Part shown: positions 46,640 to 62,984 of the stretch, one piece after another | Numbering within the stretch: position 1 is the first letter of the stretch | Layout of the letters: each line of letters starts with the position of its first letter | IMG/VR virus record: IMGVR_UViG_3300033146_003395 | Span: 17,736-81,735 of that record | DNA length: 64,000 nucleotides | Direction: 5' to 3' (one strand) | DNA from: a virus | Notes under the pieces: generated by a model | What the model was told of the DNA's origin: nothing | Database searches by the model: none | The model's input: the letters and a program-made list of their open reading frames with translations, nothing else | Made by a program: the position numbers and the translations under genes

Positions 46640-46714
46640 ACGGCTAAATTATAAGTGTAGATGAGCCGTGGAAGAGCATCTACACTTATAAAATCTCTTA
46701 TTATATTATTTATA
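46640..46714 (-). ncRNA. endonuclease-associated structured element copy 4 (3' truncated, orphan)
   Basis: Promoter, P1 5' arm, P2 and loop CUC-UUCCACGGCU intact; only AGCCGU of the complement remains. Confidence 0.65.
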
Positions 46715-47606
46715 TAATATAATCTAAATCTTTATCCTTACACATTTGTACAATGGATTTTTCACATAGACGGCAGGCTTCGTACTTCATACTTAATACT
46801 TCTTCCCAAGTCCAATCAGGGTCTATTTGTGCTTCTAACGTTAAGTAACAAGGCCATTCTTTTCCGTTGACATCAATTTGTAAACTGCCAGCATTATAAG
46901 ATTTACACTTTGCAATTTTACTTAAACCTTTACTGAACTTCAGTGTAGCTATTTTTTCTATGTTCAAGTACTGTTCAATTTTGTCTTGATAAGGCTTTAG
47001 TTTATTTAAGTTATTTTTATTTTTATAATTACTTGAGTCTTTTAATAAGAATGTTTCAGTCCAATAAACATTTGTAAAATCTTCTAACATTTTAGCCATT
47101 TCGGGGCTATCAAAATCTTTATCGTTGTAATCAAAACGAATCATCTGTACATAATCTATGGGGTTAGCAATTCTGAAAAATTTAGCATTATCTAATATCT
47201 TCTCTAATGATGTACCACTTCTATACGTTTCATGTAATTCTTGAGTACTTCCCGTAATTGTGAAATATACCCTGTCATTTTTATCTAAAAGATTACCTAA
47301 GGTGCTCCACCATAAATGAGAATGAGTACTACCATTTGTACAAATTTCTATATTAATTTTACGTGTTTTAATAAATTCAACTAACTCTAAAAAGTAATTA
47401 TATAATGTAGGTTCACTAATACTACCAACAAGTCTTATCCATTCTAAATCAGGATATGATTTTATTTGCTCTTTTAACTCATCAAAATCTCTATGAAAAT
47501 TATCTGGGTAGTGTTCATCAAATGTGTTATAATTTCTATAACATAATTGGCAGGCAGCATTACAAAAAGTACTTAACTCAAATTCTATATCTTTTACTTT
47601 GTACAT
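46710..47606 (-). CDS. radical SAM protein (GSTQELHE subfamily)
   Basis: CNAACQLC; SEPT; C-terminal twitch-like Cys. Confidence 0.9.
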   Translation of the reverse strand: MYKVKDIEFELSTFCNAACQLCYRNYNTFDEHYPDNFHRDFDELKEQIKSYPDLEWIRLVGSISEPTLYNYFLELVEFIKTRKINIEICTNGSTHSHLWWSTLGNLLDKNDRVYFTITGSTQELHETYRSGTSLEKILDNAKFFRIANPIDYVQMIRFDYNDKDFDSPEMAKMLEDFTNVYWTETFLLKDSSNYKNKNNLNKLKPYQDKIEQYLNIEKIATLKFSKGLSKIAKCKSYNAGSLQIDVNGKEWPCYLTLEAQIDPDWTWEEVLSMKYEACRLCEKSIVQMCKDKDLDYII

Positions 47607-47614
47607 ATTAAACC

Positions 47615-48424
47615 TTAATCATTATATCTATAAGCATTACAGGTAGCACAAATCCCACTAAAGATTTTATTATCTTGTAATGTCTTATAAAAATTCATTT
47701 TTTTACGTAGCTTATCTACACCATCAGTATAATGTCCCAGCGAAGTATCACCATTAATATCTTGCCAAGAACAAAATACCACTTCACCATCATAATTTAT
47801 TCCAACATCATCGTCCATCCATTTACAGTGGCCAGCTCTTTCAACTTTTGTAATAATATCTGAATTGCCTAAATCCCATTCAAAATCAACAACTTCAGGT
47901 ATATCAAAATTACCTGTTAGCTCGTTATCTATATATTTATTTGATGCATTTGTCCTATTATTTATTTCTAAATTTATATTGTTACACTTTTTTAAATAAT
48001 TAATAGTTTTCATAACATTATTATATTTATCTTTACCAGTTCTGGTTTGAAAATGTGTTTTATCATACCCATAAAAACTGATAGTAACAAGTGGGTTATT
48101 AATACTATTTACTAAGTCAAATATTCTTTCATTATAAAACTCACCAGATGTAAAAAATTGAATTTCTAAATTATCAAAAGTATTACAGTAGTCAACTATT
48201 TCTACAAAACCATTATATGGATATAAAAAACTGTCGCCTATTAATGAGCCTAATTCTATACTTTCTGCGCCCCACTCTACAGCAAAATCAATATATTTTT
48301 TAACAGTTTCTACTGGAACAATTATTTTATTTTTTTGATATTCATCACTATTTTGACAAAATGTGCATCTTAAATTACATATATTTATCATTGGTACTTG
48401 AAATTCGCTCTTATCTACATCCAT
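47615..48424 (-). CDS. radical SAM protein with twitch/SPASM-like domain
   Basis: CNLRCTFC; C...GEVVFC...CATC. Confidence 0.9.
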   Translation of the reverse strand: MDVDKSEFQVPMINICNLRCTFCQNSDEYQKNKIIVPVETVKKYIDFAVEWGAESIELGSLIGDSFLYPYNGFVEIVDYCNTFDNLEIQFFTSGEFYNERIFDLVNSINNPLVTISFYGYDKTHFQTRTGKDKYNNVMKTINYLKKCNNINLEINNRTNASNKYIDNELTGNFDIPEVVDFEWDLGNSDIITKVERAGHCKWMDDDVGINYDGEVVFCSWQDINGDTSLGHYTDGVDKLRKKMNFYKTLQDNKIFSGICATCNAYRYND

Positions 48425-49272
48425 ACATTATCTCCATTTATTATATTTAATAGTTTCTGAGTATTAATATCACACTCTCTACAAAAATCATAATTACCAT
48501 TCTCTATATTTGTAAAATCTAAATTAAAAGTATCTTTTGTTTGCATTTTAAATAAATCACATGGACTCAAACTCCCATCACAATTTATTATTAAAAAATT
48601 ATCTAATTTTGCAGGGCATACTATATTTTTATCTTTATTTATTTTCAATATATTCAAATATTTCTTTCTTAAATTATCAACCATATTAAATTCATTATCT
48701 TTATTATAAACATACTCATTAAATTGCGCTGTATCATTAATAATAAACTCATTAAATTTATTATTATAAACAGATAAATCATCAAATTCATTATATTTAA
48801 ATCGTAAATAACTAACACAATTAATAGGGTTAATTTTTTCAAAAGCTAATATATTTCTAATAACAGTATCTAAGTTACTATTAACTCTATATTTTTCATG
48901 TAGCTCTTGGGTACTTCCACAAACTGTGAATGTAATACTATCATTTGAACTCATAATATTTGCTAATTTTTCCCACCATTTCTCATCATGTAAATCACCA
49001 TTGGTAAATATTTCTACAATAATATTAAGACTTTTAATAAATTCAATTAGTGGTAATATATCTTTAAAAGTTGTAGGTTCACTTATAGCACTTGATAAAG
49101 TAATTTTTTTAACGTTCTTAAATTTTAATATATCACTTTTAATCTCTGTTAATGAGCGAGAACTAATATTTTCAAATTCTATATTTTCTCGCAAGCATAA
49201 CGGGCATTTTAGATTACATGCTGTTGTTGTTTCTAATTCGATATGCTCGATATTTTCATACTTTGTTTGCAA
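48415..49272 (-). CDS. radical SAM protein (GSTQELHE subfamily)
   Basis: CNLKCPLC. Confidence 0.9.
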   Translation of the reverse strand: MQTKYENIEHIELETTTACNLKCPLCLRENIEFENISSRSLTEIKSDILKFKNVKKITLSSAISEPTTFKDILPLIEFIKSLNIIVEIFTNGDLHDEKWWEKLANIMSSNDSITFTVCGSTQELHEKYRVNSNLDTVIRNILAFEKINPINCVSYLRFKYNEFDDLSVYNNKFNEFIINDTAQFNEYVYNKDNEFNMVDNLRKKYLNILKINKDKNIVCPAKLDNFLIINCDGSLSPCDLFKMQTKDTFNLDFTNIENGNYDFCRECDINTQKLLNIINGDNVWM

Positions 49273-50185
49273 TATTTTCCTTTATTTGTGAGTATTTTAA
49301 GTTTAGACCAGCCAGTGTCGCTTCGAGCCCAATATGTTTAATTAGTTTTTTCGCCACAATATCTAAATTTCTTAATGGGTATTTAACACTCTGGTGAAAA
49401 TCTTCATAATCATCGTAATGATAGATAGCTGTATTTTTATTACAATTATACTTTTCATTTAATTCATGATCATCTCCCTCATGAAAAGAAATTGAAGATT
49501 TAAAATCGGTAATATCAATAAATTGTTCGGGATAAGCGTGATATATTATACTTGCTGCTATTTCTTCGCACATTATTTCTAACTCTAGCTCTGGTTTGTT
49601 TACTTTCTCTGAAACTTCTAATAGTTTAAAAGTTACTTCTTTATATAATTTCCAAAACATATGATCTGTTTTTGCATATATAAACCAAGTATTAACAAAT
49701 TTAGTTAAGTGCTTTACTTCAATATCAAAACAATCCAGTATATCTTTTTTAAAATATTTATTGTAATATTCATCCCATAAAAAGACATTCTCGAATTGGT
49801 CAGTTTCTTTACTATCTAATATTGTTATAACACATCTATCTGTTTTACCCAATATTAGCTCGTCAAAATATATAACATCTAAATCTGTAAATAATGTATA
49901 TTCTGTATCTACCTTATCTATTATATAATCTAAAACTATGGGTACATTTGTATAATTAACAACCTTATTTGGTTGTGGGTTGTAAATATCCTTTATTATA
50001 TATTGTATCGCATTAATCTTAAAGTAATCTTGACATTCAGCATTAATATCATTTTTATTTGGTTGGACCATAATAATATTTTCAATCTTATTAAAACTTG
50101 AAAAAGAATCAATATATATTCTAGCATCTCTTTCAAATCTTCCATTTTTCCCTTCTATACAATGAACCATAGTAGTATTTAGCAT
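49256..50185 (-). CDS. putative GT-A glycosyltransferase
   Basis: LFTDLDVIYF DxD motif; IYHY. Confidence 0.6.
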   Translation of the reverse strand: MLNTTMVHCIEGKNGRFERDARIYIDSFSSFNKIENIIMVQPNKNDINAECQDYFKINAIQYIIKDIYNPQPNKVVNYTNVPIVLDYIIDKVDTEYTLFTDLDVIYFDELILGKTDRCVITILDSKETDQFENVFLWDEYYNKYFKKDILDCFDIEVKHLTKFVNTWFIYAKTDHMFWKLYKEVTFKLLEVSEKVNKPELELEIMCEEIAASIIYHAYPEQFIDITDFKSSISFHEGDDHELNEKYNCNKNTAIYHYDDYEDFHQSVKYPLRNLDIVAKKLIKHIGLEATLAGLNLKYSQIKENIANKV

Positions 50186-51069
50186 ATAAACTCCAAACCA
50201 AATTTTTCTATTTTATTTATTGTTTGTTTCTCACATGCAAAACAATCAGGGTAATTAAAGTCTATTATTTTTGTATAATCAAAAATATTGCCAGTAAAAG
50301 CTTCACCTGGATTATATTCAAAATGTGTATAACAAGCACTGATATTTCCATCTTGTGATATATAAATTTTTTTATACTCTAAACTTTTACATAGAAGAGT
50401 ACCAGTTTTTCTTCTATTTTTAATTAGCCATTTAATTGTTTTATCTCTAATTTCTTCCGGTTTAATATTTGAATCTGGTGTTTTAACTTTTGAATTTATA
50501 ATACGGTCGCCTTCACTATTAACAGTATAATGGTTACTAAAGTTTAATTTATTTACATTGTCTTCGTCATTTTTATTATATTCAAATTTAATAAACTGAC
50601 AATAATCATTATTTTTGTTGCTTTTTTTATAACTCATTGCGTTTTGTAAGACTGTTTCTAAGTTACTATTAACTCTATATTTTTCATGTAACTCTTGGGT
50701 ACTTCCACAAATAGTGAAATGAACAGCATCATCATTATCTAGTACTGACCCAAGCTCTTCCCAAAAAGCTGCATCTCTAGTGCTTCCATTTGTGAATATT
50801 TCCACCATCATACCTCTGGCCTTTAAATATTGTATATATTTGATAAAGTCAGGATGAAGTGTAGGTTCAGATACTTGTCCGGCAACATAAGCCCTTTTAA
50901 GATTTGGAAATGTATCAAGTTGCTTTATAATATTTTCCAACGGTCTAACATTCTTATGTACCATGTGCTGTGCATGAATATAATTACGGCTGCATAAAGG
51001 GCAACTAAGATTACAAGTCCCCGTTAAATCTAATTCAAACTCTTCATAAAAATCTTTACTTACTTGCAT
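50179..51069 (-). CDS. radical SAM protein (GSTQELHE subfamily)
   Basis: CNLSCPLC. Confidence 0.9.
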   Translation of the reverse strand: MQVSKDFYEEFELDLTGTCNLSCPLCSRNYIHAQHMVHKNVRPLENIIKQLDTFPNLKRAYVAGQVSEPTLHPDFIKYIQYLKARGMMVEIFTNGSTRDAAFWEELGSVLDNDDAVHFTICGSTQELHEKYRVNSNLETVLQNAMSYKKSNKNNDYCQFIKFEYNKNDEDNVNKLNFSNHYTVNSEGDRIINSKVKTPDSNIKPEEIRDKTIKWLIKNRRKTGTLLCKSLEYKKIYISQDGNISACYTHFEYNPGEAFTGNIFDYTKIIDFNYPDCFACEKQTINKIEKFGLEFIC

Positions 51070-51101
51070 TACAAATCTCTATTACTAAAAATAGTACAGG
51101 A

Positions 51102-51992
51102 TTATCTATCACTTTCAAACCTTAACTGCTCACCAGAATATTCATCTTCTGGCTCTGCAACTTTATATATTTTATTAGATCTTAATGTTTTGGCATTTAA
51201 CGAACTACATTCGTAACAATGAGCATCTCCATATAAATTAAATAGAATGCACGGTGATGTTTTCCCAGTAAAATCAACCAGTTGAAACTTATAATTTATT
51301 GCTGGACACGATATATTTTCAAAATCAGTCTTTATTATCTCGGATTTGTAAATATTATGAAGTTCATTTACTAAATGTATACCTTCTGGAACATCTGTTA
51401 AATTAAAGTGCTCTACCATAGGAAGGGTATTAAAAGATTCAAGATCATATTTTGTGAACTTATGATAGTTTTTTTCGTAATCTTCTTTATTATACTCAAA
51501 TAATATCCAAGTTAATTTAGCGCTAGATGAATATTTTTGTACTATTTCTAGTCTTCTAATAACAGTATCTAAGTTACTATTAACTCTATATTTTTCATGT
51601 AACTCTTGGGTACTTCCACAAATAGTAAAATAAATAGACCCTATGGCACCATTAAAAACACTACCTAATTTTTTATAATATAAATCATCGTGCGTACCAC
51701 CATTAATGAATAAAGATATATCTATTTTTCTACGTTTTAAATATATTATTAATTTAAAAAGATCGGGGTGAAGCGTTGGCTCGCTTATTGCACCAGCAAT
51801 AGATATAAATTTTAAATTTGGGTATGAATCAATTTGTTCTATTATGTCTTCTATATCTCTAAATATTGTATCAGTTTTAGTATAGTCTGGATTAATTTGT
51901 CTTATGCATAATGGGCACTTTAGGTTACAAGTACTAGTCAACCCAATCTCCAGTCTATCAATATCTGCATTATTTAAATCATTATATACCAT
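51102..51992 (-). CDS. radical SAM protein (GSTQELHE subfamily)
   Basis: CNLKCPLC. Confidence 0.9.
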   Translation of the reverse strand: MVYNDLNNADIDRLEIGLTSTCNLKCPLCIRQINPDYTKTDTIFRDIEDIIEQIDSYPNLKFISIAGAISEPTLHPDLFKLIIYLKRRKIDISLFINGGTHDDLYYKKLGSVFNGAIGSIYFTICGSTQELHEKYRVNSNLDTVIRRLEIVQKYSSSAKLTWILFEYNKEDYEKNYHKFTKYDLESFNTLPMVEHFNLTDVPEGIHLVNELHNIYKSEIIKTDFENISCPAINYKFQLVDFTGKTSPCILFNLYGDAHCYECSSLNAKTLRSNKIYKVAEPEDEYSGEQLRFESDR

Positions 51993-52818
51993 GTCTATCC
52001 TTTATTTCTTTATATACTTTATAATTTTTAATTGTCCCAGTTTTATTTTCAAATATATCACAATTAGAGCAAGACTCATTATAAATATTTTTAGTTTGGT
52101 TTGTAAAAATCTCTAATCTTTTTTTACTAAAATATACATCCTCTAAAGAAGTCTTATAAATGTTACCTAATAGTAACTCTGTATCTACTGTTAATTCGCT
52201 TTCTCCGCACAGACAGTAAACCATATTTCCATTCATATTTAATCTTGGGATAAATTGTAAACTACAGACACCAGTGCGTGTCTTATTTTTTTCTCTAATA
52301 TTTTTTGTAAACTCTTCTTTATCAATTATGTCTACACCATTATAAAAGTCATAATTAATACCGCGATATGATATTTCAATTGGTAAGTTTATTTTCTTAG
52401 CGTATTCTAAATTATTTCTATATATATTCCAATCATTTTCCGTTTTTCGTGTTAATGTTATAAAATCCTCTAAACACCCATCACCATAATCGCTTATTCT
52501 TATATCCAACTTACCTTGATACTTTTCAGTTAGTTTTTTTAACTTGTCTTGCACAGCTTCATTACACTTACTAAAATTGGTATAAAAACTAACCGAAAAA
52601 TCAGGCAAGACATAATTTAATTTTTCAATAAATTCAGGATCGATAAAAACTTCACCATCTATAGGAGTTAAATCTAATTCATCAATACCTATTTTCTTAG
52701 CGTCATCAATAATTTTAAAAAATACATCATTAGAAAGAATCTTGTGCTTATTAACATATTGAGATCCGCAGAAGTAACAGTTATAATTACAAATATTTAT
52801 TATTTCTATTCCTAACAT
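51982..52818 (-). CDS. radical SAM protein with twitch/SPASM-like domain
   Basis: CNYNCYFC; LLGNIYKTSLEDV; CSNC. Confidence 0.9.
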   Translation of the reverse strand: MLGIEIINICNYNCYFCGSQYVNKHKILSNDVFFKIIDDAKKIGIDELDLTPIDGEVFIDPEFIEKLNYVLPDFSVSFYTNFSKCNEAVQDKLKKLTEKYQGKLDIRISDYGDGCLEDFITLTRKTENDWNIYRNNLEYAKKINLPIEISYRGINYDFYNGVDIIDKEEFTKNIREKNKTRTGVCSLQFIPRLNMNGNMVYCLCGESELTVDTELLLGNIYKTSLEDVYFSKKRLEIFTNQTKNIYNESCSNCDIFENKTGTIKNYKVYKEIKDRHGI

Positions 52819-53438
52819 AACATCTCTAATGTGATTTCTTTTATTACTGCATTATCATTTTCCATTATAAAGATTTCTTGTTCCATAATTGACTCTGAAA
52901 AATCAGAATCAACAACATTTACTATTCTTAATAATGGCAAGTCAACTTCCTCATCATACTCATCAAAATAAATAAATTTACTTGGTTTACTAATTCGTAA
53001 AGAATCAATATCAAAAAAATAAATGATATTATTTTTAACTATTAAATTTTCATTATGTAAGTCTTGGAAAGAAATATCACTTTCCCAATCAGATATAATT
53101 TTTTTATAATCTAATAAATTTAACTCAGGGATATCCCGAGGTATATTACCATCTATAAATTCAAAAGTAAACCATTTTTCATCTTCTTCTAATAAATTTA
53201 TTGTATTGCTAATATTATTAATATTTTTAATAAATTTAAAAATCCGCATAGTATCTTCATGTGAATAGCATATTTTCTGTGTATAAAAATTATACAAGTA
53301 TTCCTTAAAAATATACTTTTTATTTTCAAATAGTATACTTCTTGGTGTTGTATCACCTAAAAATGTGACCTCGGTGGTTCCAAACTTTGTTTGAAGTTCT
53401 TTGCGATATTTATGATCTATTTCACTATTTAACAACAC
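52812..53438 (-). CDS. kinase-like protein (protein kinase/APH fold)
   Basis: IFKEY, FEFIDG, DLHNENLIV, FFDID. Confidence 0.65.
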   Translation of the reverse strand: MLLNSEIDHKYRKELQTKFGTTEVTFLGDTTPRSILFENKKYIFKEYLYNFYTQKICYSHEDTMRIFKFIKNINNISNTINLLEEDEKWFTFEFIDGNIPRDIPELNLLDYKKIISDWESDISFQDLHNENLIVKNNIIYFFDIDSLRISKPSKFIYFDEYDEEVDLPLLRIVNVVDSDFSESIMEQEIFIMENDNAVIKEITLEMLC

Positions 53439-54444
53439 TTGTTTCCTTTCTGAACTCTATTATATTTTTAATGTGCTCGCCTTCTATTATTTTAATACCT
53501 GAATTATTATATTGTTTTTCAATACCATCACAGATAAGAAAAAATTTACATTTAGAGCATTCTCTTGGTTTACTATAAGTATTAACTCTATTGGTTTGTG
53601 CTTGCTCATAAGCATTCTCAATTGTATTTTTAATTGGAGCTTCAGCATCATAAGTTAACAAATTCCAATCACCTAAATCATAGATGTGTTGGAATGTTCC
53701 TACAACATACTTCTCATATCCTTTCATAAAACAATAAGGGATATAACGAACATTAACTTCTATATCGGTTTCTACTAAATAATCAATACAAACTTTTATA
53801 CCTTCACTTAATATGTCGTAACTAGATACTTTCATATCTTTAGCGTCACTCCAGTAATTTAGTGGCAACAAATTTAACTGTTTGGGGCTAAAACTTCTTA
53901 CTAAATTTGCGTATTGTAACATATCATTAACGTTATTTTCCGTTACTGTGCAATTAATTCTAACCTTAATCCCTAGTATATTACAATTCTCAATAGCTTG
54001 TATAATATGTTGAAAAGCTTTATTGTGCCCTACAATTTTGTCATGTGAATCTGCATCCCACCCGTGTAAGCTAAATAATACTTCATTTAAACCGTGCATT
54101 TGTGACATCTCGGCAAAAGCGAAATCTTTTAATTTACTTCCATTGCTTAAACAAGAAACACTCATAAATTTATCTCTACAATACTCAAGTATATCAAACC
54201 AATCGGGGTGAATTGTACTCTCACCACCACTTAAGTCAACTTCCTTCATACCAGATTTAAAAAGTATATTTGCCCTTGCTTTAATTTCTTCTAGGGATAA
54301 ACTGGGGTCATTTAAATTATTTTGATAATAGCAAAATCCACATTTGTAGTTACATTTTAATCCGGTATCTAGTTTACCTCTGGAATTAATTGGTAGCTGC
54401 ACGTGGGTTTGTATCTGTGGTTTACTTATTGTATTATAATTCAT
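53425..54444 (-). CDS. radical SAM protein with C-terminal CxxCxxxxxC
   Basis: CNYKCGFC; SGGEST; IPYCFM; CSKCKFFLICDG. Confidence 0.9.
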   Translation of the reverse strand: MNYNTISKPQIQTHVQLPINSRGKLDTGLKCNYKCGFCYYQNNLNDPSLSLEEIKARANILFKSGMKEVDLSGGESTIHPDWFDILEYCRDKFMSVSCLSNGSKLKDFAFAEMSQMHGLNEVLFSLHGWDADSHDKIVGHNKAFQHIIQAIENCNILGIKVRINCTVTENNVNDMLQYANLVRSFSPKQLNLLPLNYWSDAKDMKVSSYDILSEGIKVCIDYLVETDIEVNVRYIPYCFMKGYEKYVVGTFQHIYDLGDWNLLTYDAEAPIKNTIENAYEQAQTNRVNTYSKPRECSKCKFFLICDGIEKQYNNSGIKIIEGEHIKNIIEFRKETSVVK

Positions 54445-54454
54445 TTTAATATCC

Positions 54455-54584: not shown

Positions 54585-54654
54585 TTGTATCCTTATAAGT
54601 AAATTATAAGAGTACAAATATATCATTTGTATCCTTATAAGTAAATTATAAGAG
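54571..54654. repeat. exact 42-bp tandem duplication
   Basis: tacaaatatatcatttgtatccttataagtaaattataagag x2. Confidence 0.95.
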
Positions 54655-54750: not shown

Positions 54751-55647
54751 TCAAATTATTTCCTTTAATATATTAACTATTTCGTCATTTTGGGTGAGTT
54801 GAATACTTTGAAAATTATTTTCAATATCGTAACGTCTCCAAAATAACCCTTTATCTTCTAACCAATAATCAACATCATATACTACTTGTTTATTGAAGTA
54901 GTGACACTCTGCGATAAATCTTGGAGAGCAGTCAAATTTTCTTGGTACTGGTGTATAAATATAAGTGTTGAACTCTTCCATTAAGTTATTATACGGTAAT
55001 AACTTAAAAGTAATATTAGAGTAAGTCTCTAATGGAATTTCATTGACTAAACATAAAATATTATCACATGGTAAATTTTTGCTAAGCATTTTGAAGTAAT
55101 TGTCATCAATAGCTCTGCAATTTTTTGTAGCATATAATAATATGTTATCCTTAGGGTTTTTAGGTTTAGTCATTCTGCTGAATAACATTTTCTTTTTATA
55201 GTTAATACCATTTTTCAGTACTGAATCATATACTCTATCATCCTGTAAAATATAAACGTTATCTTTGTTATTATCTTGAATCTCTTTATTACCGCAAGCG
55301 AAATAAAATATATTATCAAATATTAGCGTAGTGTTACGAGTGTTAACTATTCCACCATCAGTAAAAATAATATTCTTACCCTTAAGCAGCTTAGGTCTAT
55401 TCTCAAATCTCGTATTAATTTTAATATCTTGTATCTCGACTTCATCAAAATCGTATTTAGACCGGATAGCTTTTTCAAATGTACTCCAGCTAATATCTTC
55501 ACATAATAAAATCTCAGTGTCATATTTGTTTTTCAAAATCATATAGTAATCGATAACTTCAAAAGTATGACCACAAATTCCATGATTATTTGTTGACCAA
55601 GAATATGTTAAAGTTAATTGTCTATTAGTTTGCACTATTTTACTCAA
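54751..55647 (-). CDS. putative GT-B-like glycosyltransferase
   Basis: Paralog of next gene; D..PRFIAEC pattern; sugar-gene context. Confidence 0.4.
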   Translation of the reverse strand: MSKIVQTNRQLTLTYSWSTNNHGICGHTFEVIDYYMILKNKYDTEILLCEDISWSTFEKAIRSKYDFDEVEIQDIKINTRFENRPKLLKGKNIIFTDGGIVNTRNTTLIFDNIFYFACGNKEIQDNNKDNVYILQDDRVYDSVLKNGINYKKKMLFSRMTKPKNPKDNILLYATKNCRAIDDNYFKMLSKNLPCDNILCLVNEIPLETYSNITFKLLPYNNLMEEFNTYIYTPVPRKFDCSPRFIAECHYFNKQVVYDVDYWLEDKGLFWRRYDIENNFQSIQLTQNDEIVNILKEII

Positions 55648-56434
55648 GCATATCCTTAATTATTGGTGTATCTATTTGTAGTTGATACTGACTAATACCA
55701 TTTTTCATTATGTCACTGAATCTTAGATAAACTGAATCTTCTTCATCTGAATTATCAATAACTACTATACTCTTATCATAATGGAAACACTCCACTATAA
55801 GTCTATTATTAGTATCTCTAAATCCATTGTGATAATAATATAATGTATCGAATTGCTCAAATAAATTATCTAAAGGTTTATCAACATTTTTAGTTAATAT
55901 ATTGCTTTCTTGAATATCTATTTTATCGATTATTTTATTATAGTTAATACTAGGAGAAGTTATATAAGCAGTATCTGTATAAACCTCATCAATCTCTTTG
56001 TAAATATTAAAATTGAATCTTAATTTATCTTCAATATCATATTCTTGATAATCGTAAGTGCCATAATATGTTATCTTCTTATTATTGCTGTATACTTTTT
56101 CATAATACGTATTTGCATATACCAAAACATCAGATTTTAAGAATCTAAACATCTTCTCGAAGCTATTAGTATCTAAGAATAAAGATTTTGTACTTTCTAT
56201 CTCATAGAGTTCACTGATAGTATCAACAATTTTAATATTATCTAAAATCTGGTGGTCGAAATTATACTTATTTTTGAAAGTATCTTTAACCATAACCAGG
56301 TCTTCTGGACTGATATTTTTAATATAGAACGTGGTATTCTTATGTCTATTTAAATATTCAAAATACTCAAAGCAATAGAATAACGTCCCATTAATTTTTC
56401 TACCAGGTAGAAAATAATAAAAAATATTAATCAC
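55640..56434 (-). CDS. putative GT-B-like glycosyltransferase
   Basis: INGTLFYCFEYF and NRLIVEC parallel ICGHTFEVIDYY and PRFIAEC. Confidence 0.4.
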   Translation of the reverse strand: MINIFYYFLPGRKINGTLFYCFEYFEYLNRHKNTTFYIKNISPEDLVMVKDTFKNKYNFDHQILDNIKIVDTISELYEIESTKSLFLDTNSFEKMFRFLKSDVLVYANTYYEKVYSNNKKITYYGTYDYQEYDIEDKLRFNFNIYKEIDEVYTDTAYITSPSINYNKIIDKIDIQESNILTKNVDKPLDNLFEQFDTLYYYHNGFRDTNNRLIVECFHYDKSIVVIDNSDEEDSVYLRFSDIMKNGISQYQLQIDTPIIKDMLE

Positions 56435-56976
56435 TAGATGCTGCTTGAAATCTTATCTAATTCTTCAACATCATCTTCTGTTAGTTTATAAACAGACTGT
56501 AATACTCTATTAAAATCTTTCTTAGCACTTTTAACTACTTGCAATTCATCTTTAGCTTCAAGAAAAGCTTCAAGTAGATCAATTAAATTTTCATCACCAA
56601 TCTCTAATATTTCGAGATATTTTTCTTCTCTATTATTATTGGTTATGAATATTCCATGAGAACTTAATTCATTATTAATATCAATATAATTAATATATGT
56701 TATCATATCAACTTTCTGTACTAGACTTTCTACCTTAAGCTTGGCTTCTTTAATAATTGAAACTCTTTTGATGTCTTTAACTGGTATATTATAATACTTT
56801 TCATCTTTGAATAAGATGTTTCCTTCGCTATCTATTATAATTGTCTTATCTGAAATATTTGCAGCGATAAAATTATTTATTTCAACCTCATCTATAACTA
56901 TAGTATTTTCAGACTCCATATCTACAATTTTATCTATGATTATATGTGCATCTTCGTTTATTATTTGATATATCAT
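56434..56976 (-). CDS. hypothetical acidic protein
   Basis: AAGGA RBS; coupled to next gene. Confidence 0.7.
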   Translation of the reverse strand: MIYQIINEDAHIIIDKIVDMESENTIVIDEVEINNFIAANISDKTIIIDSEGNILFKDEKYYNIPVKDIKRVSIIKEAKLKVESLVQKVDMITYINYIDINNELSSHGIFITNNNREEKYLEILEIGDENLIDLLEAFLEAKDELQVVKSAKKDFNRVLQSVYKLTEDDVEELDKISSSI

Positions 56977-57053
56977 TAATTTCCTTTATCTTATATAATA
57001 ACATAATAAACTTAAAGTAATATTAGAGGGTATTAGAGGAGTATTAGAGGAAG

Positions 57054-57079
57054 TTAAATAACACCAAAGTGTTATTTAA
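57054..57079. terminator. AT-rich hairpin, possible terminator
   Basis: TTAAATAACAC-CAAA-GTGTTATTTAA. Confidence 0.5.
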
Positions 57080-57087
57080 ATTTTTAG

Positions 57088-57119
<32 letters not shown>

Positions 57120-57127
57120 AATTACAG

Positions 57128-58408
57128 TTACAAGTAATTACAGTTACAAGTACAAGAATAATTACAGTTACAAGTACAGTTATTACAATTACAAGCACAA
57201 AAGTTACAATTACAAAAACACGACCCTGCAGATGAATTTATTTCAGCAATTAATGCATTTATTTGTGCTGCTGTTATAATAGTTCCAATTGGAAGTTCAC
57301 TAAAATTACCACCTGGTTGTCCAGCATTTGTTTCTGTCCAAGTTACTATAGCTTTACCTGAACCACCATGGCCGCCTCTTGCCATAGATACATTTCCACC
57401 AGTAGCGCCTCCACCGCCGCCACCACCAATATTACCAGGTAATCCATTGACATGAACAGCATCTCCAGCACCAGCACCACCGCTACCGAGGCCGCCACCG
57501 CCTCCACCGCCGCCACCCCAAACAAAGGCCACAGTATGTCCCCTTACACCCCCAGGATTCACGCCGCCACATCCAGCATTTGAAGGAACACCATCAGAGT
57601 ATATTATAACATTATCCCAAGAGCCATTTCCACCGTTACCACCACCGTTTGCACCAATTCCAGGCTGACTTGGCCATAACCCATTACCATTAATCGCGCC
57701 AGCACCACCACTAACAGAAAAGCTACCTCCAAATGATGATGTACCACCTGAGCCGGCTTGTGCACCACTTATATTAGTTCCAATTCCGCCTTTGCCAATA
57801 ATGACAGTGATCCTTTGATCTGGTTGTACGTCAATAGTTCTGGTTGAAGCACCAGCACCACCACCCCCGGCACCACTTTGCCAGTTTCCACCAGTATTAT
57901 ACCATTGAGAACCACCGGCACCACCACCACCACTTAGACAAACAGTTACTGAATTGGTATTTGGTGGAACAGTAAAAGTCGATGTCGCTGTAAAAATCTG
58001 AGAACCTGGTGATGTACTAGGTGGAACAGAAGCAGCACCATTTAAAGCTACAACTAAAGAATTATAATGAGCAGCAGTTATTAAAGTTCCAGTTGCTGGC
58101 CTTATACTTGGCAATATTGGGCCCGTGGATAATCCCACTCGTTGTCTCTCCGCAATAATATCATTTTCTATAGAAATCCATAAAGGGTCGTCTATAAGAA
58201 TTCCAGTTGTTACTTCGTTAGAACTCACATTACCACTGTCATCTCCAGCAGTTCCATAAGGGTCTTTATCCCATTTACAACCAGTTTCTAAATATGAATC
58301 ACATATTAGTATTGAAGATGTTGATGGCGTCTGTGGTAAATTTGTAGCACTACATTTGCCATTTAAATTTGCATGGCCTTGACAATAGTTTATGCAGTAT
58401 CCTGACAT
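57128..58408 (-). CDS. Gly-rich fibre-like protein with C-terminal (CxCNCNx)4 repeat; candidate radical SAM substrate
   Basis: FTVP..V.VCLSGGGGAGG Gly-rich domain flanked by two GT.ITAA..N.L repeats; 12 Cys in last 30 aa. Confidence 0.7.
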   Translation of the reverse strand: MSGYCINYCQGHANLNGKCSATNLPQTPSTSSILICDSYLETGCKWDKDPYGTAGDDSGNVSSNEVTTGILIDDPLWISIENDIIAERQRVGLSTGPILPSIRPATGTLITAAHYNSLVVALNGAASVPPSTSPGSQIFTATSTFTVPPNTNSVTVCLSGGGGAGGSQWYNTGGNWQSGAGGGGAGASTRTIDVQPDQRITVIIGKGGIGTNISGAQAGSGGTSSFGGSFSVSGGAGAINGNGLWPSQPGIGANGGGNGGNGSWDNVIIYSDGVPSNAGCGGVNPGGVRGHTVAFVWGGGGGGGGGLGSGGAGAGDAVHVNGLPGNIGGGGGGGATGGNVSMARGGHGGSGKAIVTWTETNAGQPGGNFSELPIGTIITAAQINALIAEINSSAGSCFCNCNFCACNCNNCTCNCNYSCTCNCNYL

Positions 58409-58409
58409 A

Positions 58410-58817
58410 TTAGTCCTTTAGGTATTTATTAATATTTTTTTTAATATTATCTAATAAATCTGTATTTATCTTATTTATATTATTATCTTTTATGTTTTCG
58501 GTGTTCTGCTCATTAATTATATTAGTTATAATATCTTTTGCCATTTTTTCTACTTCTTCAGATATATTAATATCAAACATTTGTTCAAAAATAATTATTT
58601 TTGATTCGGCATCGGGTTCGCTAACATTTGAATGATTATATACTAATTTTTGGGCTTTTATAAAACCTAATAATGCATCCATATAAAAATCTTTAATATC
58701 TGGAGAAATCTCTTCATACTGAGTACCAACTTTAATTAATTCTTTAGTTATTTCCTGAAATCTTTGTCCTCTTTCTTCTGGTGTTGCCTCTATCTCTAAG
58801 TCTTGCTCTTTTTTCAT
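58410..58817 (-). CDS. hypothetical protein in radical SAM operon
   Basis: Coupled ORF. Confidence 0.7.
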   Translation of the reverse strand: MKKEQDLEIEATPEERGQRFQEITKELIKVGTQYEEISPDIKDFYMDALLGFIKAQKLVYNHSNVSEPDAESKIIIFEQMFDINISEEVEKMAKDIITNIINEQNTENIKDNNINKINTDLLDNIKKNINKYLKD

Positions 58818-59629
58818 ACTTTTTCCTTTTTTTTAAAATCACTAAATTCACCTGATGAAACTAATGTTCTACTTATTTGTTTAGTTGAAGTATACAAAGA
58901 CAAATTATCTCTATGTATTTCACACCCATTACAAGTATCACATACCAGTTCACAAATTGGCACTTTAATTTTTTGACTGTTCCACATATCAATTATTTTT
59001 GCTTTTCCGTGTTCAAAAATATTAATATCTATTTGCTCAGTAACAGCTCCTAATATTATTCTTGATGGGTTAAAAGAGTCTATTAAATTAGTAATATCAT
59101 CTACAAATACTCCAATATTATGTGTATGAACCGTATATCTAATTCTATACGGCATATTTATCGCTTTAAATAATGATAATACATACAAAATATCTGTTGT
59201 AGATTCTTTATTGCTATGAAATATTCTTTCTTGGTTACCTTTTCCATCGAAACTAATATCTAACGTTATTTTCCCTGCTTTATAATGTACATTATTTATA
59301 TAATCCGACACAAATTTATCATCTTTAAATTTTAACCCATTAGATATTATATTAAATTGTACATTCTCTTTTTTTGACACGGCATAATCCATAAAGTATT
59401 TTAGTTTATCCCATTCCAATAATGGTTCTCCACCAAATAAGATGAAAAACGTTTGTTCATTTATAACCTCTCTTCCTATTACTTCGTCTGCTGCCTCCCT
59501 TAATTTTTCTAATGAGATAGTTGACTTCTCAACATCTTTTAAGTTCTCATAACAATAAGTGCAGTTTAATTGACAATCACTAGTAAAATACACTATATTA
59601 GTTTTGTTATCGCTTATATTTTTAAACAT
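58814..59629 (-). CDS. radical SAM protein
   Basis: CQLNCTYCYE; FGGEPLL; ISFDG; CELVCDTCNGC. Confidence 0.9.
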   Translation of the reverse strand: MFKNISDNKTNIVYFTSDCQLNCTYCYENLKDVEKSTISLEKLREAADEVIGREVINEQTFFILFGGEPLLEWDKLKYFMDYAVSKKENVQFNIISNGLKFKDDKFVSDYINNVHYKAGKITLDISFDGKGNQERIFHSNKESTTDILYVLSLFKAINMPYRIRYTVHTHNIGVFVDDITNLIDSFNPSRIILGAVTEQIDINIFEHGKAKIIDMWNSQKIKVPICELVCDTCNGCEIHRDNLSLYTSTKQISRTLVSSGEFSDFKKKEKV

Positions 59630-59827
59630 TTATTGGCTATCAGTATCAGCTGCTAATATTACCGATATGTCTTCTAAAAATACTTCAAAGTCTATCTTAT
59701 AATCAAACAAGTGCCCAGGATTATTATACATTACATATTTCTTATCTACTAATGATTTCTTGGCATCATCTAGTTTTTCCTCTATTTCTTTAATACTTAA
59801 TTTATTTTCTTTTGTATCACAACTCAT
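59630..59827 (-). CDS. small hypothetical protein
   Basis: Fills operon; AAGGA RBS. Confidence 0.6.
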   Translation of the reverse strand: MSCDTKENKLSIKEIEEKLDDAKKSLVDKKYVMYNNPGHLFDYKIDFEVFLEDISVILAADTDSQ

Positions 59828-60557
59828 TAGAATCCTTTTCTATTTCTTGAATAATTTTATTTATTTTTTCAGGGTCATATTTAAAAAATTTCTGTACAAT
59901 ATTAATTAAAATTAATATCTGTTTTTTATCTTTAATCGTATTTCTTTGTTCACATAATCTTTTCTTTATAAGAGTCTCTAATTTTTCTTTTTCAATATCA
60001 CTTACAGTATCTAATACATAAGCGATTAATTTATCGAAGAGATCAAAATCGAATTGTTCCTGTTCTAATAAAAATATTATAGTAAATCTATTTTTCATTT
60101 TAATTAAAAATTCAGATATATCATTTTTTAAAGTTATATTATCAGGATCAATACTATCAGAATTAGTATAATAATTATATAATATAGCAGATTTAGATGT
60201 TTTTGCACAATCATTATTTAACAATAATCTTATTGACTCTTTGGTCTTGTCTAGTTCTATATCATTTAATAAATGTAGAAATTTAGTATTAATATTTAGA
60301 TGAAGATCATCCCAAGCACCTTTATAAATATATCTATCAAATCTTCTCTTACCAAATTTATTCATATATATTCGAGAACATTCGAATGTATAACAATTTA
60401 GATCAAGAATTTTCTCTATACTAGGCTTCTTCTCAAAAATTTTTAAATATCTTATATTCTCATATAATGAATGGGGTTTAGAATATTTTCTTTTATACTT
60501 CTTTCTAGAACATTTTATATTTTTCTTTTCAAACTTCCCTTGAATTTCCCAAATCAT
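59817..60557 (-). CDS. hypothetical protein in radical SAM operon
   Basis: ATGA overlap. Confidence 0.65.
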   Translation of the reverse strand: MIWEIQGKFEKKNIKCSRKKYKRKYSKPHSLYENIRYLKIFEKKPSIEKILDLNCYTFECSRIYMNKFGKRRFDRYIYKGAWDDLHLNINTKFLHLLNDIELDKTKESIRLLLNNDCAKTSKSAILYNYYTNSDSIDPDNITLKNDISEFLIKMKNRFTIIFLLEQEQFDFDLFDKLIAYVLDTVSDIEKEKLETLIKKRLCEQRNTIKDKKQILILINIVQKFFKYDPEKINKIIQEIEKDSNEL

Positions 60558-61657
60558 CCCATATTCCTTAATAAATCATGCACTAAATTTTGAAAAATAG
60601 GATTATCTTTTAACTCATGTACAACTCTTTGAGTCTCTTCTTGTATCATATGAAATAATTCACAAACACTATCAACAGGTTTATTATCATTTCTAATTTG
60701 AGAATAAGTACAACCCGCATTACAAACAGAATATAAATCACAGCTCTGACATTTGTCAAAATTTGCCGGTTTAAACTTCTCTTGCCAATACGCAAAATTA
60801 TGATTTTCATCCATCTCCATAACTTTCTTATCGCTAAATCTAGCGCAAGGATAAAACTTACCATCAGTTGTCATAACAGCACCATTAACACCTGCGAAAC
60901 AACCAAAATCTCTCTTCTGATATGTTAGTCCAAAGATATTATCTAAAATACATAAGCTAAAGAAACCAACATTTAGTTTTATGCCTTCTTTTATATAATG
61001 AATATATCTATCTCCGAGACTTTTAATATCTGTTCTGAAATTTCTTAAGTCTTGTGCACTCCAAATATCATCTCTAACAATACTATAATCTGGTGACATT
61101 ATTCCATTATTTACGAAAAAATCCAGGTTAGCTGTCATCTCTGAACTATTTCCTGGCCATACCATAACTTTACAGCCAGATGTAAGTTGTTTAATTAGTG
61201 GCATTTTATCTTGAAATAATTCCATTGTATTGGTGTAACTTGTACCATCTTCTTTAGGATTAATAAATTGAGTTGCTAAAGGTCTTGACTCGTTGCTTCC
61301 CATACCATCGAAACTCCAAGATACACCAACCTCATTATCTTTAATCCACTGAAGTTTTTCTTCATCTATTAATGTCATATTAGAAATAATAACTAAGTTT
61401 AATTTCAATGGTAATTTTTTAAGGATACCTGTAGCATACTTTATTAAATCAAAATTCATCATTGGTTCACCGCCGAAGAATGATAAGTTAAGATTTTTAG
61501 TGCCCGATGCTTTCATCATATCAATTAGTTTAGGTAACATTTCATTAAATACTTCTTTGGTCATATAAGTATCTGTAAATGTTTCATAACAATAAGTACA
61601 TCTCATAGAGCATTGATCCGCGACTTTTAATTCTAGTGTAAATGTATCAAAACCCAT
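60554..61657 (-). CDS. radical SAM/SPASM maturase-like protein
   Basis: CSMRCTYCYE; FFGGEP; GCFAG...FYPC; CQSC..YSVCNAGC...C. Confidence 0.92.
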   Translation of the reverse strand: MGFDTFTLELKVADQCSMRCTYCYETFTDTYMTKEVFNEMLPKLIDMMKASGTKNLNLSFFGGEPMMNFDLIKYATGILKKLPLKLNLVIISNMTLIDEEKLQWIKDNEVGVSWSFDGMGSNESRPLATQFINPKEDGTSYTNTMELFQDKMPLIKQLTSGCKVMVWPGNSSEMTANLDFFVNNGIMSPDYSIVRDDIWSAQDLRNFRTDIKSLGDRYIHYIKEGIKLNVGFFSLCILDNIFGLTYQKRDFGCFAGVNGAVMTTDGKFYPCARFSDKKVMEMDENHNFAYWQEKFKPANFDKCQSCDLYSVCNAGCTYSQIRNDNKPVDSVCELFHMIQEETQRVVHELKDNPIFQNLVHDLLRNMG

Positions 61658-61875
61658 TAATAAACTCTCAATAGTTGAATATTTTCTACACCTGTACAGA
61701 TGGTGTCCTCAATATTATTCTGGTGAACTATAAATGTAACAGTTCCATAAGGTTCTGCAAAATTGTTATTTAAATTACTATTAATAAATGTACCAAAATA
61801 GTGCTTCTCATTATAAGTGAAACCAACCTCTTTACTATCTTTAATTAAGTTTTCTATTAAAGTTCTAGTTATCAT
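61657..61875 (-). CDS. small hypothetical protein between two SPASM enzymes
   Basis: TAATG overlaps at both ends. Confidence 0.65.
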   Translation of the reverse strand: MITRTLIENLIKDSKEVGFTYNEKHYFGTFINSNLNNNFAEPYGTVTFIVHQNNIEDTICTGVENIQLLRVY

Positions 61876-62984
61876 TATTTTCCTTTGCTTTGCATTGCAT
61901 ATCTAATTGTCTTATTATATTTATCCATAAATTTAAATAAACTACAAGTCTGATTACTTTGATAATCAGTCCATTTTTCTTCGTATGTTTCTTTTGTTGA
62001 ACTGAAAAAATTAGATGCCTCACACTTCATACAAAAATTTACATCACAAGTTTGGCATTCAGTTGGTTTATATTCATATAATGGTTTGAATTTTTCTACA
62101 CCTGCTAAAAAATCTTCAGTAAAATTATCAATAGTACCAATATTATGCTCTTTACTTTCACGATATAAAAATCCGTGGCAAGGCTTCATTGAGCCATCTA
62201 AATCAATTGCGGTCATATTTACACCTACTGAGCACATCGCTTTATGGTGTGAAAACCAAGTAAATATATCTGGATTTAAATCGTTAGCATAAATGTAACT
62301 CGCTATTTTTTCCAGTTGTTCTCCAAGAATTTCAGAATCTTTTTGAAGTTCTTCTGTAGTTCTATTACTCCACATATCTGGCGTAGGTCCATAAAATCCT
62401 TGTTTTTTAAATAAGTCTAAAAAGCTATCAAATAAATGCGGAAACCCATCATTAGATATGACAGATTTTAATGATGTTTTAATTCCAATTTCTTTTAACG
62501 TATTGAAACCTTCTATTGTTTGTTTAGATGTTCCAGCACCGGATTTATCAACTCTAATATTATTACTTAAATATTCTCCATCATAAGATACTTGAATTTC
62601 TAAACGATTTCCTAATATTTTATGTAGCTCAATTAATTCAGATTTATATTTTGTGATAAATCCACCATGAGTATAAAAGAAAAATGAAAATGCTTCATCA
62701 TCTTTATATGCTTGTAAAACCGCATTACAGAAATTCCAGTTTAAGAAAGGTTCGCCGCCCCAGAAATTAATTTTTTTAGTCTTTGAACTATCAGTATTAA
62801 GTTTTTCTATCAGTGTTTCTACAGATACTTCTGTATTTTTCATATAAAATGTACTTAAATTACACCCTTGTTTTTCAAGAGCTGCATCATTTTCTAAACA
62901 ATATGTACATGCCAGGTTACAAGAACTTGTAACGTTTAAATCTATATTAATATTATCTTGTATATTCATTTCGCATAATGCCAT
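61875..62984 (-). CDS. radical SAM/SPASM maturase-like protein
   Basis: CNLACTYC; FWGGEP; CSVG...KPCHG; CQTC..FCMKC...C. Confidence 0.92.
   Translation of the reverse strand: MALCEMNIQDNINIDLNVTSSCNLACTYCLENDAALEKQGCNLSTFYMKNTEVSVETLIEKLNTDSSKTKKINFWGGEPFLNWNFCNAVLQAYKDDEAFSFFFYTHGGFITKYKSELIELHKILGNRLEIQVSYDGEYLSNNIRVDKSGAGTSKQTIEGFNTLKEIGIKTSLKSVISNDGFPHLFDSFLDLFKKQGFYGPTPDMWSNRTTEELQKDSEILGEQLEKIASYIYANDLNPDIFTWFSHHKAMCSVGVNMTAIDLDGSMKPCHGFLYRESKEHNIGTIDNFTEDFLAGVEKFKPLYEYKPTECQTCDVNFCMKCEASNFFSSTKETYEEKWTDYQSNQTCSLFKFMDKYNKTIRYAMQSKGK

Follow-up and report, generated by a model that had tools for sequence, protein, structure and literature searches.

Radical SAM genes around a Cys/Asn-repeat fibre-like protein in a phage: a candidate system for enzymatic modification of a fibre tip

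What might a phage do with ten radical S-adenosylmethionine (rSAM) genes in 16 kb, grouped around the gene for a fibre-like protein that ends in a Cys/Asn repeat? The question is raised by a stretch of viral DNA of 64,000 nucleotides (the window), which makes up the final 64 kb of an IMG/VR record of 81.7 kb (IMGVR_UViG_3300033146_003395; completeness 44% by CheckV). The genes form an island of 20 open reading frames (ORFs), all on the minus strand, that runs from position 62984 to position 46710. Ten of the 20 exceed the Pfam PF04055 cut-off of 29.5 (33-70 bits), each with a CX3CX2C motif at residues 10-31; these are the ten genes, at the same minus-strand coordinates, that a first-pass annotation of the DNA had counted, and a six-frame search of the entire record returned the same ten and no additional ones. 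The answer put forward here, to which slightly better than even chances are given, is that enzymes of the island modify the tip of the fibre-like protein, with thioethers from Cys to Asn or Asp as the leading chemistry and with glycosylation as a possible addition. A bolder form of the proposal is more tentative and stands somewhat below an even chance: that in many large phages a trimeric host-recognition fibre is stapled at its distal tip, by means of an rSAM-made thioether ladder on Cys/Asn heptads together with glycosylation by enzymes of the GT-B (glycosyltransferase B) fold. Such stapling would be the chemistry of ribosomally synthesised peptides with post-translational modifications (RiPPs) turned to the maturation of a virus structural protein.

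The proposed substrate and its two distinctive regions are:

57128-58408, minus strand: Cys-repeat fibre-like protein of 426 aa, the proposed substrate (translation; phrog_863, phrog_26958)
57338-57985, minus strand: Gly-rich domain, residues 142-357 (Pfam PF21722 Gly_rich_2, 46.3 bits against a cut-off of 24.3)
57131-57220, minus strand: four Cys/Asn heptads, residues 397-426, with 12 Cys, at the C-terminus (translation)

The protein proved to be built as first described, with a Cys-bearing N-terminus (five Cys within the first 44 residues), a Gly-rich domain (34% Gly) flanked by two GT.ITAA..N.L motifs and, letter for letter, the tail CFCNCNF-CACNCNN-CTCNCNYS-CTCNCNYL. Residues 370-425 match phrog_26958, the family of gp140 from Campylobacter phage CP220, and a further match of the protein is to phrog_863, which belongs to the tail category and is annotated 'tail fiber assembly'. 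The family comprises 290 representative clusters at E <=0.001 among 1.84 billion representatives, all of whose members are named only 'hypothetical protein' in every source, and the heptad region is without a match in Pfam and NCBIfam. Among 50 distinct heptad proteins, positions 1, 3 and 5 of the heptad are Cys, position 2 is mostly Thr (62%) or Pro (18%), position 4 is Asn (65%), Asp (26%) or Gln (6%), position 6 is Asn (89%) and position 7 is aromatic in 92% of heptads (Tyr 72%, Phe 20%). Each protein has from 3 to 28 heptads, with a median of 4, and in an alignment of 22 relatives the layout of the four-heptad form is fixed at 7-7-8-7 and its 12 Cys do not vary. At 426 aa the window protein is by far the longest of the 50; most have about 140-300 aa and are too short for an insert of the size of Gly_rich_2. 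Neither this domain nor any informative fusion domain was present in ten longer family members scanned with Pfam, and the Pfam matches of one protein, P0090, resemble those of a chimeric or false family member. A short helical unit, I.A..N.L, recurs two or three times in the N-terminal parts of the family, in many cases with E..RRG after it, and Gly_rich_2 is taken to be an insert between units two and three of the window protein. The motif just before the tail, which had been read as a leader-like site, is one of these two or three family-wide structural repeat copies and no demonstrated leader.

Endings after the last heptad were classed by regular expression in the 50 proteins: eight are long tails that start with SDxRLK, 15 are short stubs of the same start, 11 stop within 3 residues of the last heptad, and 16 are other (14 short, two long). 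A Pfam scan of ten relatives, seven of them long-tailed and chosen by eye, placed position 1 of the Peptidase_S74 profile (PF13884) at the residue right after the repeat in all seven long-tailed SDxRLK relatives; the three further relatives, which lack the SDxRLK start, have no Peptidase_S74 match, and several family rows carry a precomputed PF13884 annotation. S74 is a self-cleaving trimerisation chaperone of phage fibres and spikes that is cut off on maturation. Because either S74 lies directly after the repeat or the repeat is itself C-terminal, the mature protein would end with the repeat, and this would include the window protein, which lacks an S74 domain and stops at the point at which the chaperone would start. 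A repeat at the mature end would form the distal end of a fibre, which argues against a released peptide, and the mature fibre that carries it there is probably trimeric.

Two further features of the family may be recorded here. Many N-termini are Cys/His-rich, with M-A-C-x-G-H followed by more Cys (58277-58408 in the window; also L006, L024, L109 and P0010), and another subgroup begins with M-G-S-P-C-P; the N-terminal Cys make up a second conserved Cys site, at the opposite end from the heptads. In a relative of 520 aa (P0094) the segment after the heptads, read by eye, starts like a self-cleaving domain of the Hint/intein type instead of S74, with no Pfam match at E 0.001.

Upstream of the fibre gene lies a first module that contains three of the ten rSAM genes (counts of loci refer to the 77 r2-anchored loci defined below):

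61875-62984, minus strand: r1, rSAM enzyme of 369 aa (PF04055, 50.6 bits; CX3CX2C at residue 22; seven-Cys SPASM-like C-terminus)
61657-61875, minus strand: s72, ORF of 72 aa without Pfam, PHROG or NCBIfam match, not conserved
60554-61657, minus strand: r2, rSAM/SPASM-like enzyme of 367 aa, the most conserved cassette gene (PF04055, 46 bits)
59817-60557, minus strand: u246, ORF of 246 aa without family match, not conserved by sequence
59630-59827, minus strand: s65, small conserved protein between r2 and r3 (homologues at the equivalent position in 34 of 77 loci)
58814-59629, minus strand: r3, short rSAM enzyme of 271 aa (PF04055, 35.9 bits; phrog_19488; one C-terminal CX3CX2CX2C)
58410-58817, minus strand: u135, acidic protein of 135 aa upstream of the fibre gene (homologues at the equivalent position in 26 of 77 loci)

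The best NCBIfam match of all three enzymes is PapB (NF047865), at 86.7 bits for r1, 130.4 for r2 and 66.1 for r3. Lower matches are to SCIFF, QhpD, the CXXX-repeat maturase (TIGR04115, on which r1 and r2 score 59-61 bits, 60.8 and 59.4, against a cut-off of 350 and so are not members) and the cyclophane formers YhhB, AmcB and DynA. Against solved structures, a profile of r2 finds CteB first (5wgg, E 2.6e-29), followed by an unnamed entry, anSME and SuiB. Residues 9-321 of r2 align to residues 99-420 of CteB and r2 begins at its cluster motif; as the alignment covers only this part of CteB, the N-terminal recognition (RRE) domain of the latter is absent from r2. The first-pass annotation had recognised two SPASM-type enzymes here, and r1 and r2 do show a SPASM-like spacing of seven C-terminal Cys, a pattern that does not vary among 14 r2 homologues; the Pfam SPASM model (PF13186) matches distant r2 relatives and does not reach E 0.01 on r1 or r2. 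A single four-Cys motif is found at the C-terminus of r3. Among the small ORFs, s72 and u246 have no jackhmmer match in the 77 loci, and NCBIfam returned nothing for the unassigned ORFs (u246 and u135 included), for the fibre protein or for three of its relatives.

If these enzymes act on the repeat, the two should be found together. A degenerate DNA pattern for two adjacent CxCNCNx heptads was searched in 2.9 million viral contigs and found 50 stretches, with an ORF containing at least two motifs at 49 of them. Forty-five of the 49 heptad-bearing records that were searchable whole contain rSAM genes, typically 7 to 10 and up to 16. At 37 of the 50 loci the fetched flank holds homologues of r1, r2 or r3, which lie on the same strand as the repeat gene in 37 of 37 cases, at a median gap of 370 bp and a maximum of 1541 bp. 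From the side of the enzymes, a scan of the viral contigs with r2 as a single protein detected no relative; a profile from 14 aligned r2 homologues detected 295, from which 77 loci were kept. A Cys-dense ORF on the same strand, by an ad hoc rule of at least four CxC motifs in 40 residues, is found at 64 of these 77 loci, at no more than 3.5 kb in all but one. Co-occurrence of repeat and rSAM genes, which the first-pass annotation had put forward as a test, is therefore strongly positive both ways. Adjacency is kept through different gene orders (repeat-r1-r2-r3, r2-r1-repeat, r1-r2-r3-repeat) and where repeat genes stand in tandem (four copies in L015, three in L021). Prokaryotes, represented by one genome each of 185,579 species, gave five pattern matches: two are low-complexity strings (L135, L136), two lie beside an ORF with an rSAM motif (L137, L138) and one is a single heptad protein of 835 aa (L139). 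The heptad family is almost entirely phage-borne. As far as gene content and order reveal it, the pairing of PapB/CteB-like rSAM enzymes with a predicted Cys/Asn-repeat tip is conserved, co-oriented and kept through rearrangements.

One locus keeps the module without the repeat. In L061, whose r2 is 53% identical to that of the window, r1, r2, s65, r3 and u135 are present and the fibre gene (L061:12674-12889) is reduced to an N-terminal fragment of 71 aa with no heptads; either the substrate gene has decayed here or the repeat has collapsed in the assembly.

Downstream of the fibre gene the island continues with a second module:

56434-56976, minus strand: u180, conserved partner, the next gene downstream of that for the fibre protein (homologues in 53 of 77 loci, a distant clade among them)
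55640-56434, minus strand: u264, probable GT-B glycosyltransferase (distant paralogue of u298 by jackhmmer, 17-21% identity)
54751-55647, minus strand: u298, GT-B fold, glycosyltransferase-like (AlphaFold2 predicted local distance difference test, pLDDT, 91.7)
53425-54444, minus strand: r4, rSAM enzyme of 339 aa (PF04055, 70.2 bits; phrog_27238, E 3.5e-81)
52812-53438, minus strand: k208, ORF of 208 aa (Kinase-PolyVal, 16.5 bits against a cut-off of 27; without PHROG)
51982-52818, minus strand: r5, rSAM enzyme with SPASM match (PF04055, 33.2 bits; PF13186, 29.7 bits)
51102-51992, minus strand: r6, rSAM enzyme, phrog_21308 paralogue (PF04055; C-terminal four-Cys pattern)
50179-51069, minus strand: r7, rSAM enzyme, phrog_21308 paralogue (PF04055, PHROG, Cys pattern)
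49256-50185, minus strand: u309, ORF of 309 aa without family match (homologues in 3 of 77 loci)
48415-49272, minus strand: r8, rSAM enzyme, phrog_21308 paralogue (PF04055, PHROG, Cys pattern)
47615-48424, minus strand: r9, rSAM enzyme with SPASM match at cut-off (PF04055, 52.9 bits; PF13186, 21.8 bits)
46710-47606, minus strand: r10, rSAM enzyme, phrog_21308 paralogue (PF04055, PHROG, Cys pattern)

The glycosyltransferase-like genes that had been suspected here are borne out by structure prediction. Although u298 has no Pfam match, its confident model is that of a GT-B fold glycosyltransferase with two Rossmann-like domains. The leading Foldseek matches are CalG3 (7.6e-5), OGT (2e-4), an Actinobacillus glucosyltransferase (3.4e-4) and EarP (6.6e-4), with a probability of 1.00 for CalG3 and OGT, and the last three of the four are protein glycosyltransferases; in VIA-align, 257 of the 298 residues align to PimA (Z 15.5, root-mean-square deviation 3.5). 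It is plausible that u298 and its distant paralogue u264 glycosylate the fibre tip. The adjoining u180 also gives a good model (pLDDT 91.5), for which Foldseek against the PDB, VIA-align wide and BFVD found nothing informative (best Z 8.1, to a designed helical protein). In related cassettes r4 is usually paired with u298, and its NCBIfam matches are weak ones to MoaA, NirJ and viperin-like families. A four-Cys C-terminal motif is present in each of r5-r10, and four of these are phrog_21308 paralogues. Sugar tailoring, further protein modification and DNA modification are all candidate roles for r4-r10. The kinase of the first-pass annotation was not upheld, for the sub-threshold match of k208 spans 26 residues only, and this ORF has no homologue in the 77 loci.

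The proposed course of events begins with the 426-aa protein as a fibre or adhesin, whose mature C-terminal tip would be the four-heptad Cys/Asn block. Before or during assembly, r1, r2 and r3 would act on this tip in the unassembled chain, removing a hydrogen from the Asn or Asp after each Cys, at the beta carbon, and joining this carbon to the Cys sulphur, so that a ranthipeptide-like ladder of covalent staples would result. The second module, with its GT-B pair, u180 and seven further rSAM enzymes, would probably add or build a sugar-type decoration, or make further modifications. In the available part of the work on PapB, this enzyme is described as joining Cys to the side chain of a C-terminal acidic residue at i+1 to i+7 (PMC12373016). 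Each heptad Cys has an Asn or Asp at i+1 or i+3, and the chemistry of the repeat is in this respect compatible with the PapB type. Of the two products that had been envisaged at the outset, a crosslinked and possibly glycosylated virion fibre is now the favoured reading because the co-occurrence is positive, the enzymes are near PapB and CteB and the GT-B fold is confirmed, whereas a released peptide is unlikely given the S74 boundary (7/7) or C-terminal position of the repeat.

The same parts are found in cultured phages. Homologues of r2, 33% identical, occur in 15 Campylobacter Firehammervirus records, including CP220, CPt10, CP21, IBB_35 and F379. An rSAM expansion in Campylobacter phages had been mentioned in the first-pass annotation, and CP220 indeed has 11 rSAM genes together with a heptad protein, gp140, of 534 aa with seven heptads and further CxC motifs. 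Its r1 orthologue gp136 (28% identical, E 4e-42) is encoded 2.2 kb from gp140, and the phage has in addition an r2 homologue (gp023), a u180 homologue (gp015) and three GT-B homologues. In the accessible portion of the CP220 genome paper, 11 and 12 rSAM genes are reported for CP220 and CPt10, with a suggested role in metabolic fitness, and a 21-bp repeat in CPT_0180 is noted there and not connected to the rSAM enzymes (Timms et al., 2010; PMC2853527). CPT_0180 is gp140, and the 21-bp repeat encodes the Cys heptads. With its dispersed parts CP220 indicates that the parts travel together even when unclustered, and it makes the hypothesis testable in the laboratory.

The contexts of these CP220 genes (NC_027997.1) are at 11829-12527 for gp015, 121571-122811 for a GT-B homologue that adjoins an rSAM gene, and 160932-165911 for gp140. 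The first of them follows genes annotated as baseplate hub and tail assembly protein, and the gene after gp140 is annotated 'RNA ligase and tail fiber protein attachment catalyst'.

Quick maximum-likelihood trees of r2 and of the glycosyltransferase, with support from the Shimodaira-Hasegawa-like approximate likelihood-ratio test (SH-aLRT; 95 mark), show how repeat and enzymes have descended. On the r2 tree, heptad loci and those that carry a two-Cys hexad (C.CN.., with S74 after it) fall into different clades, both with support, and the repeat label changes 7 times against 19.8 in shuffles. Since the glycosyltransferase tree is largely congruent with that of r2, shared descent explains much of this clustering. 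The window was compared with both groups (L058-L060 and L109-L127). Its r1, r2, r3, s65 and heptad tail are closest to L058-L060 (r2 58-72% identical, SH-aLRT 99), whereas the hexad clade holds the nearest relatives of u298, r7 and r10 (53-60%, 33-51% and 27-58% identical); the r2-like gene of that clade has only 23-27% identity to r2 of the window. By these affinities the island is a natural recombinant, or mosaic, in which the repeat type appears to have gone with r1-r3 and not with the glycosyltransferase module. Among eight carriers that are at least 90% complete, four have a Gp23-type capsid gene and four have none, which implies that more than one backbone carries the pairing or distant versions of it.

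Several observations weigh against enzymatic stapling of the tip. To begin with the distribution, no rSAM gene is present in 4 of the 49 repeat-bearing records; all four are 13-60 kb fragments, and in each the repeat gene lies about 2 kb or less from a contig end. For one of them (L019, 16 kb) truncation alone is an insufficient explanation: downstream of its Cys/Asp/Asn heptad gene come a 254-aa protein without assignment and then, two genes from the repeat gene, a member of the Asp/Asn beta-hydroxylase family (L019:19-825, minus strand; PF05118, 26.9 bits against a cut-off of 22.6), which may represent an oxygen-dependent route to the same Asp/Asn beta carbon. Members of this family are found in 4 of 44 cassette-bearing records, among them that of L014 (contig positions 14238-14474, in the cassette region), and their presence near repeat genes points to the same beta carbon, in these 4 of 44 records only. 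By the rule used, 13 of the 77 r2-anchored loci lack a Cys-dense ORF; four of the 13 end less than 1.5 kb past the enzyme gene, another is L061 with its shortened fibre gene, and one (L108) carries a different Cys repeat. Kinship inflates both sets of co-occurrence counts, as the carriers are for the most part related large phages and several of the loci come from near-identical contigs. A scan for capsid relatives gave 12 loci, two with the cassette and the others short fragments, and so yielded no cassette-free control set. The recombinant is one event, and its u298 has SH-aLRT support of 92-93, under the 95 mark. In CP220 the cassette parts are scattered.

As to the enzymes, the PapB scores of r1-r3 are far below the equivalog cut-off of 340 and the three are not members of that family; they lack a recognition element of the CteB type, and Pfam at E 10 gave no PqqD/RRE signal in the small or unassigned ORFs. 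A Cys-Asn thioether has a precedent in NxxcB, and it is homology that suggests thioether chemistry here. In the part of the PapB study referred to above, the acceptors are acidic residues and not Asn (PMC12373016). One related idea was set aside, namely that the heptad is the Asp/Asn hydroxylation consensus of epidermal growth factor domains, the spacing of which does not fit.

A block of 12 Cys before a trimerising chaperone also fits a tip that is locked by metal or disulfides. This leads to the strongest alternative, a live rival whose metal-binding part was already named in the first-pass annotation and which is considered here unlikely but well worth weighing: the heptads would be a structural tip that binds metal or forms disulfides in the trimer, and the rSAM enzymes would serve nucleotide-sugar or DNA base modification. 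The invariance of the 12 Cys, the fixed 7-7-8-7 layout and its position directly before S74 count in its favour; the close same-strand adjacency of r1-r3 to the repeat gene, which outlasts rearrangements, counts against it. The genes just outside the island, an epimerase, a partial DegT aminotransferase and a UDP-glucose dehydrogenase-like gene, speak for sugar metabolism, as do the GT-B paralogues, which belong to the conserved core; r1-r3, by contrast, resemble peptide maturases (PapB, CteB, SCIFF, QhpD) and not sugar or nucleotide enzymes, and in the recombinant window the repeat type tracks the r2 clade and not the glycosyltransferase module. Phage rSAM enzymes are known in DNA hypermodification, according to the part of the source available (PMC8989533), and the dispersal of the CP220 genes is a further point in favour. 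On balance this explanation suits the second module (r4-r10) better than the first.

A somewhat less probable alternative keeps r1-r3 as modifiers of the repeat and changes the chemistry, to formylglycine formation from Cys, epimerisation, methylation or carbon-carbon links to the Tyr or Phe at position 7. It draws on anSME, the third-best solved relative of r2, and on the annotation 'arylsulfatase regulator' of a homologue in one Campylobacter phage record, but the invariant residues of the heptad are Cys and Asn and do not form a sulfatase motif. The cyclophane maturases YhhB, AmcB and DynA among the NCBIfam matches, and an aromatic residue at position 7 in more than nine heptads out of ten, would suit links to carbon, although the top matches of r1-r3 are thioether formers. 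Three distinct enzymes for three Cys per heptad would also accord with this alternative. A strict assignment of one enzyme to each Cys position was tried and rejected, as loci with the three-Cys heptad (L097, L099) show only r1 and r2 nearby.

That the tail is a classical RiPP core, cleaved off and released as a bioactive peptide with the remainder as a long leader, is very improbable, for all that enzymes adjoin a Cys-rich C-terminal repeat in a RiPP-like layout and that L015 and L021 have tandem precursor-like copies: Pfam and PHROG scans found no protease or exporter in the cassette, S74 after the repeat cleaves there and leaves the repeat on the fibre, repeated helical units and, in the window protein, Gly_rich_2 give the N-terminal parts a fibre-like character, and the family is almost entirely phage-borne, with five matches in the 185,579 species genomes.

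Modification of the fibre tip by r1-r3, to return to the preferred reading, can be set beside several known systems. CteB/CteA and PapB/PapA (5wgg, TIGR03974, NF047865) are the best sequence matches of r1-r3. They share with the window an rSAM core, to which r1 and r2 add seven C-terminal Cys in a SPASM-like spacing, and enzyme genes that adjoin the gene of a substrate with a Cys-rich repeat, each Cys being followed by a residue of the Asp/Asn type. In contrast to these systems, r1-r3 score below the cut-offs, lack an N-terminal RRE and are phage-encoded; there are three enzymes per substrate, Asn is the main candidate acceptor, and the substrate is a fibre protein of 170-430 aa with S74 (in relatives) or a Gly-rich domain rather than a short leader-core peptide. 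A usual RiPP system likewise has a short leader-core precursor with leader removal and release, whereas the window precursor is a fibre-like protein of 426 aa and most relatives have 170-300 aa, so that the term RiPP does not apply in the usual sense. The CXXX-repeat system (TIGR04115) also pairs an rSAM/SPASM maturase with a strictly periodic Cys protein, though its Cys recur at every fourth residue and not at positions 1, 3 and 5 of a heptad with an invariant Asn. With S74 fibres and spikes (PF13884) there is agreement in the chaperone directly after the repeat, which is found in relatives and not in the window protein; we know of no report that S74 fibres need rSAM enzymes. The needle of the T4 long tail fibre has His-x-His iron sites that stabilise its tip, and thus a short periodic motif of the metal-ligand type at the distal end of a trimeric fibre, as would the window protein; the ligand there is His and here would be Cys, and a self-assembling metal site would have no need of the conserved enzyme set beside the gene. 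CP220 and CPt10 share the rSAM expansion in a T4-like phage, with dispersed genes in CP220 where those of the window are clustered.

A literature search, which left most subscription journals outside its reach, found no work linking Cys heptads to rSAM enzymes and no rSAM-modified virion protein. New here are the definition of the heptad proteins as a family type, the boundary at S74, the connection to the rSAM puzzle of CP220 and to cultured phages, the GT-B core and the argument from the recombinant. If the proposal is correct, it would explain a puzzle of 15 years' standing, the ten or so rSAM genes in Campylobacter phages of the CP220 type and in many uncultured large phages; enzymatic cross-linking would join the known means of virion stabilisation, and peptide-modifying rSAM enzymes would gain a large undescribed substrate family of 290 representative clusters. 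Because fibre tips set host range and particle stability, this chemistry would matter for phage biology and for the engineering of stable receptor-binding proteins. Phages of the CP220 group are cultured and carry the full set of parts, so that the claim is directly testable.

The remaining observations concern the record itself and its surroundings. It has genes for a T4-type major head protein, portal, prohead protease, topoisomerase II and DNA ligase, and its capsid protein shares 45% identity with the capsid proteins of some Vibrio phages and 42% with that of CP220. At 42766-44653 (minus strand), close to the island, an ORF of 206 aa matches only the N-terminal part (positions 26-94) of the DegT/DnrJ/EryC1 profile, and the next ORF upstream (43388-44653) begins with a region like a homing endonuclease; this may be a sugar aminotransferase gene split by a mobile endonuclease. 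Just beyond the island, at 45270-45584 on the plus strand, is a gamma-glutamyl cyclotransferase-like (GGACT/AIG2) gene. Scans of the window for sigma-70 promoters and terminators gave what shuffled sequence would be expected to give, and copies of the T4 late-promoter word TATAAATA number 25, where chance would give 26.6. A copy at 58472-58479 (minus strand), inside u135 and 64 bp upstream of the fibre gene start, is given no weight; copies resembling the word also stand ahead of the portal gene and the head genes.

Against 50,697 phage records, megablast of 56000-63000 found no match, and neither did tblastn of the fibre protein, which its low-complexity filter may have masked. Short contigs of low depth that are at least 99% identical to the window partly cover the fibre and u135 genes (56900-59700); they come from public runs labelled hydrothermal vent or sediment and from an unlabelled 2025 study, with shares of at most 0.30, and no RNA run is among the holders listed. 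As pieces of which none spans the heptad tail, they neither confirm nor question the repeat number. The labels are a hint of a vent or sediment habitat for the window phage, and a Campylobacterota host would fit its 28% G+C and its apparent kinship to Campylobacter phages.

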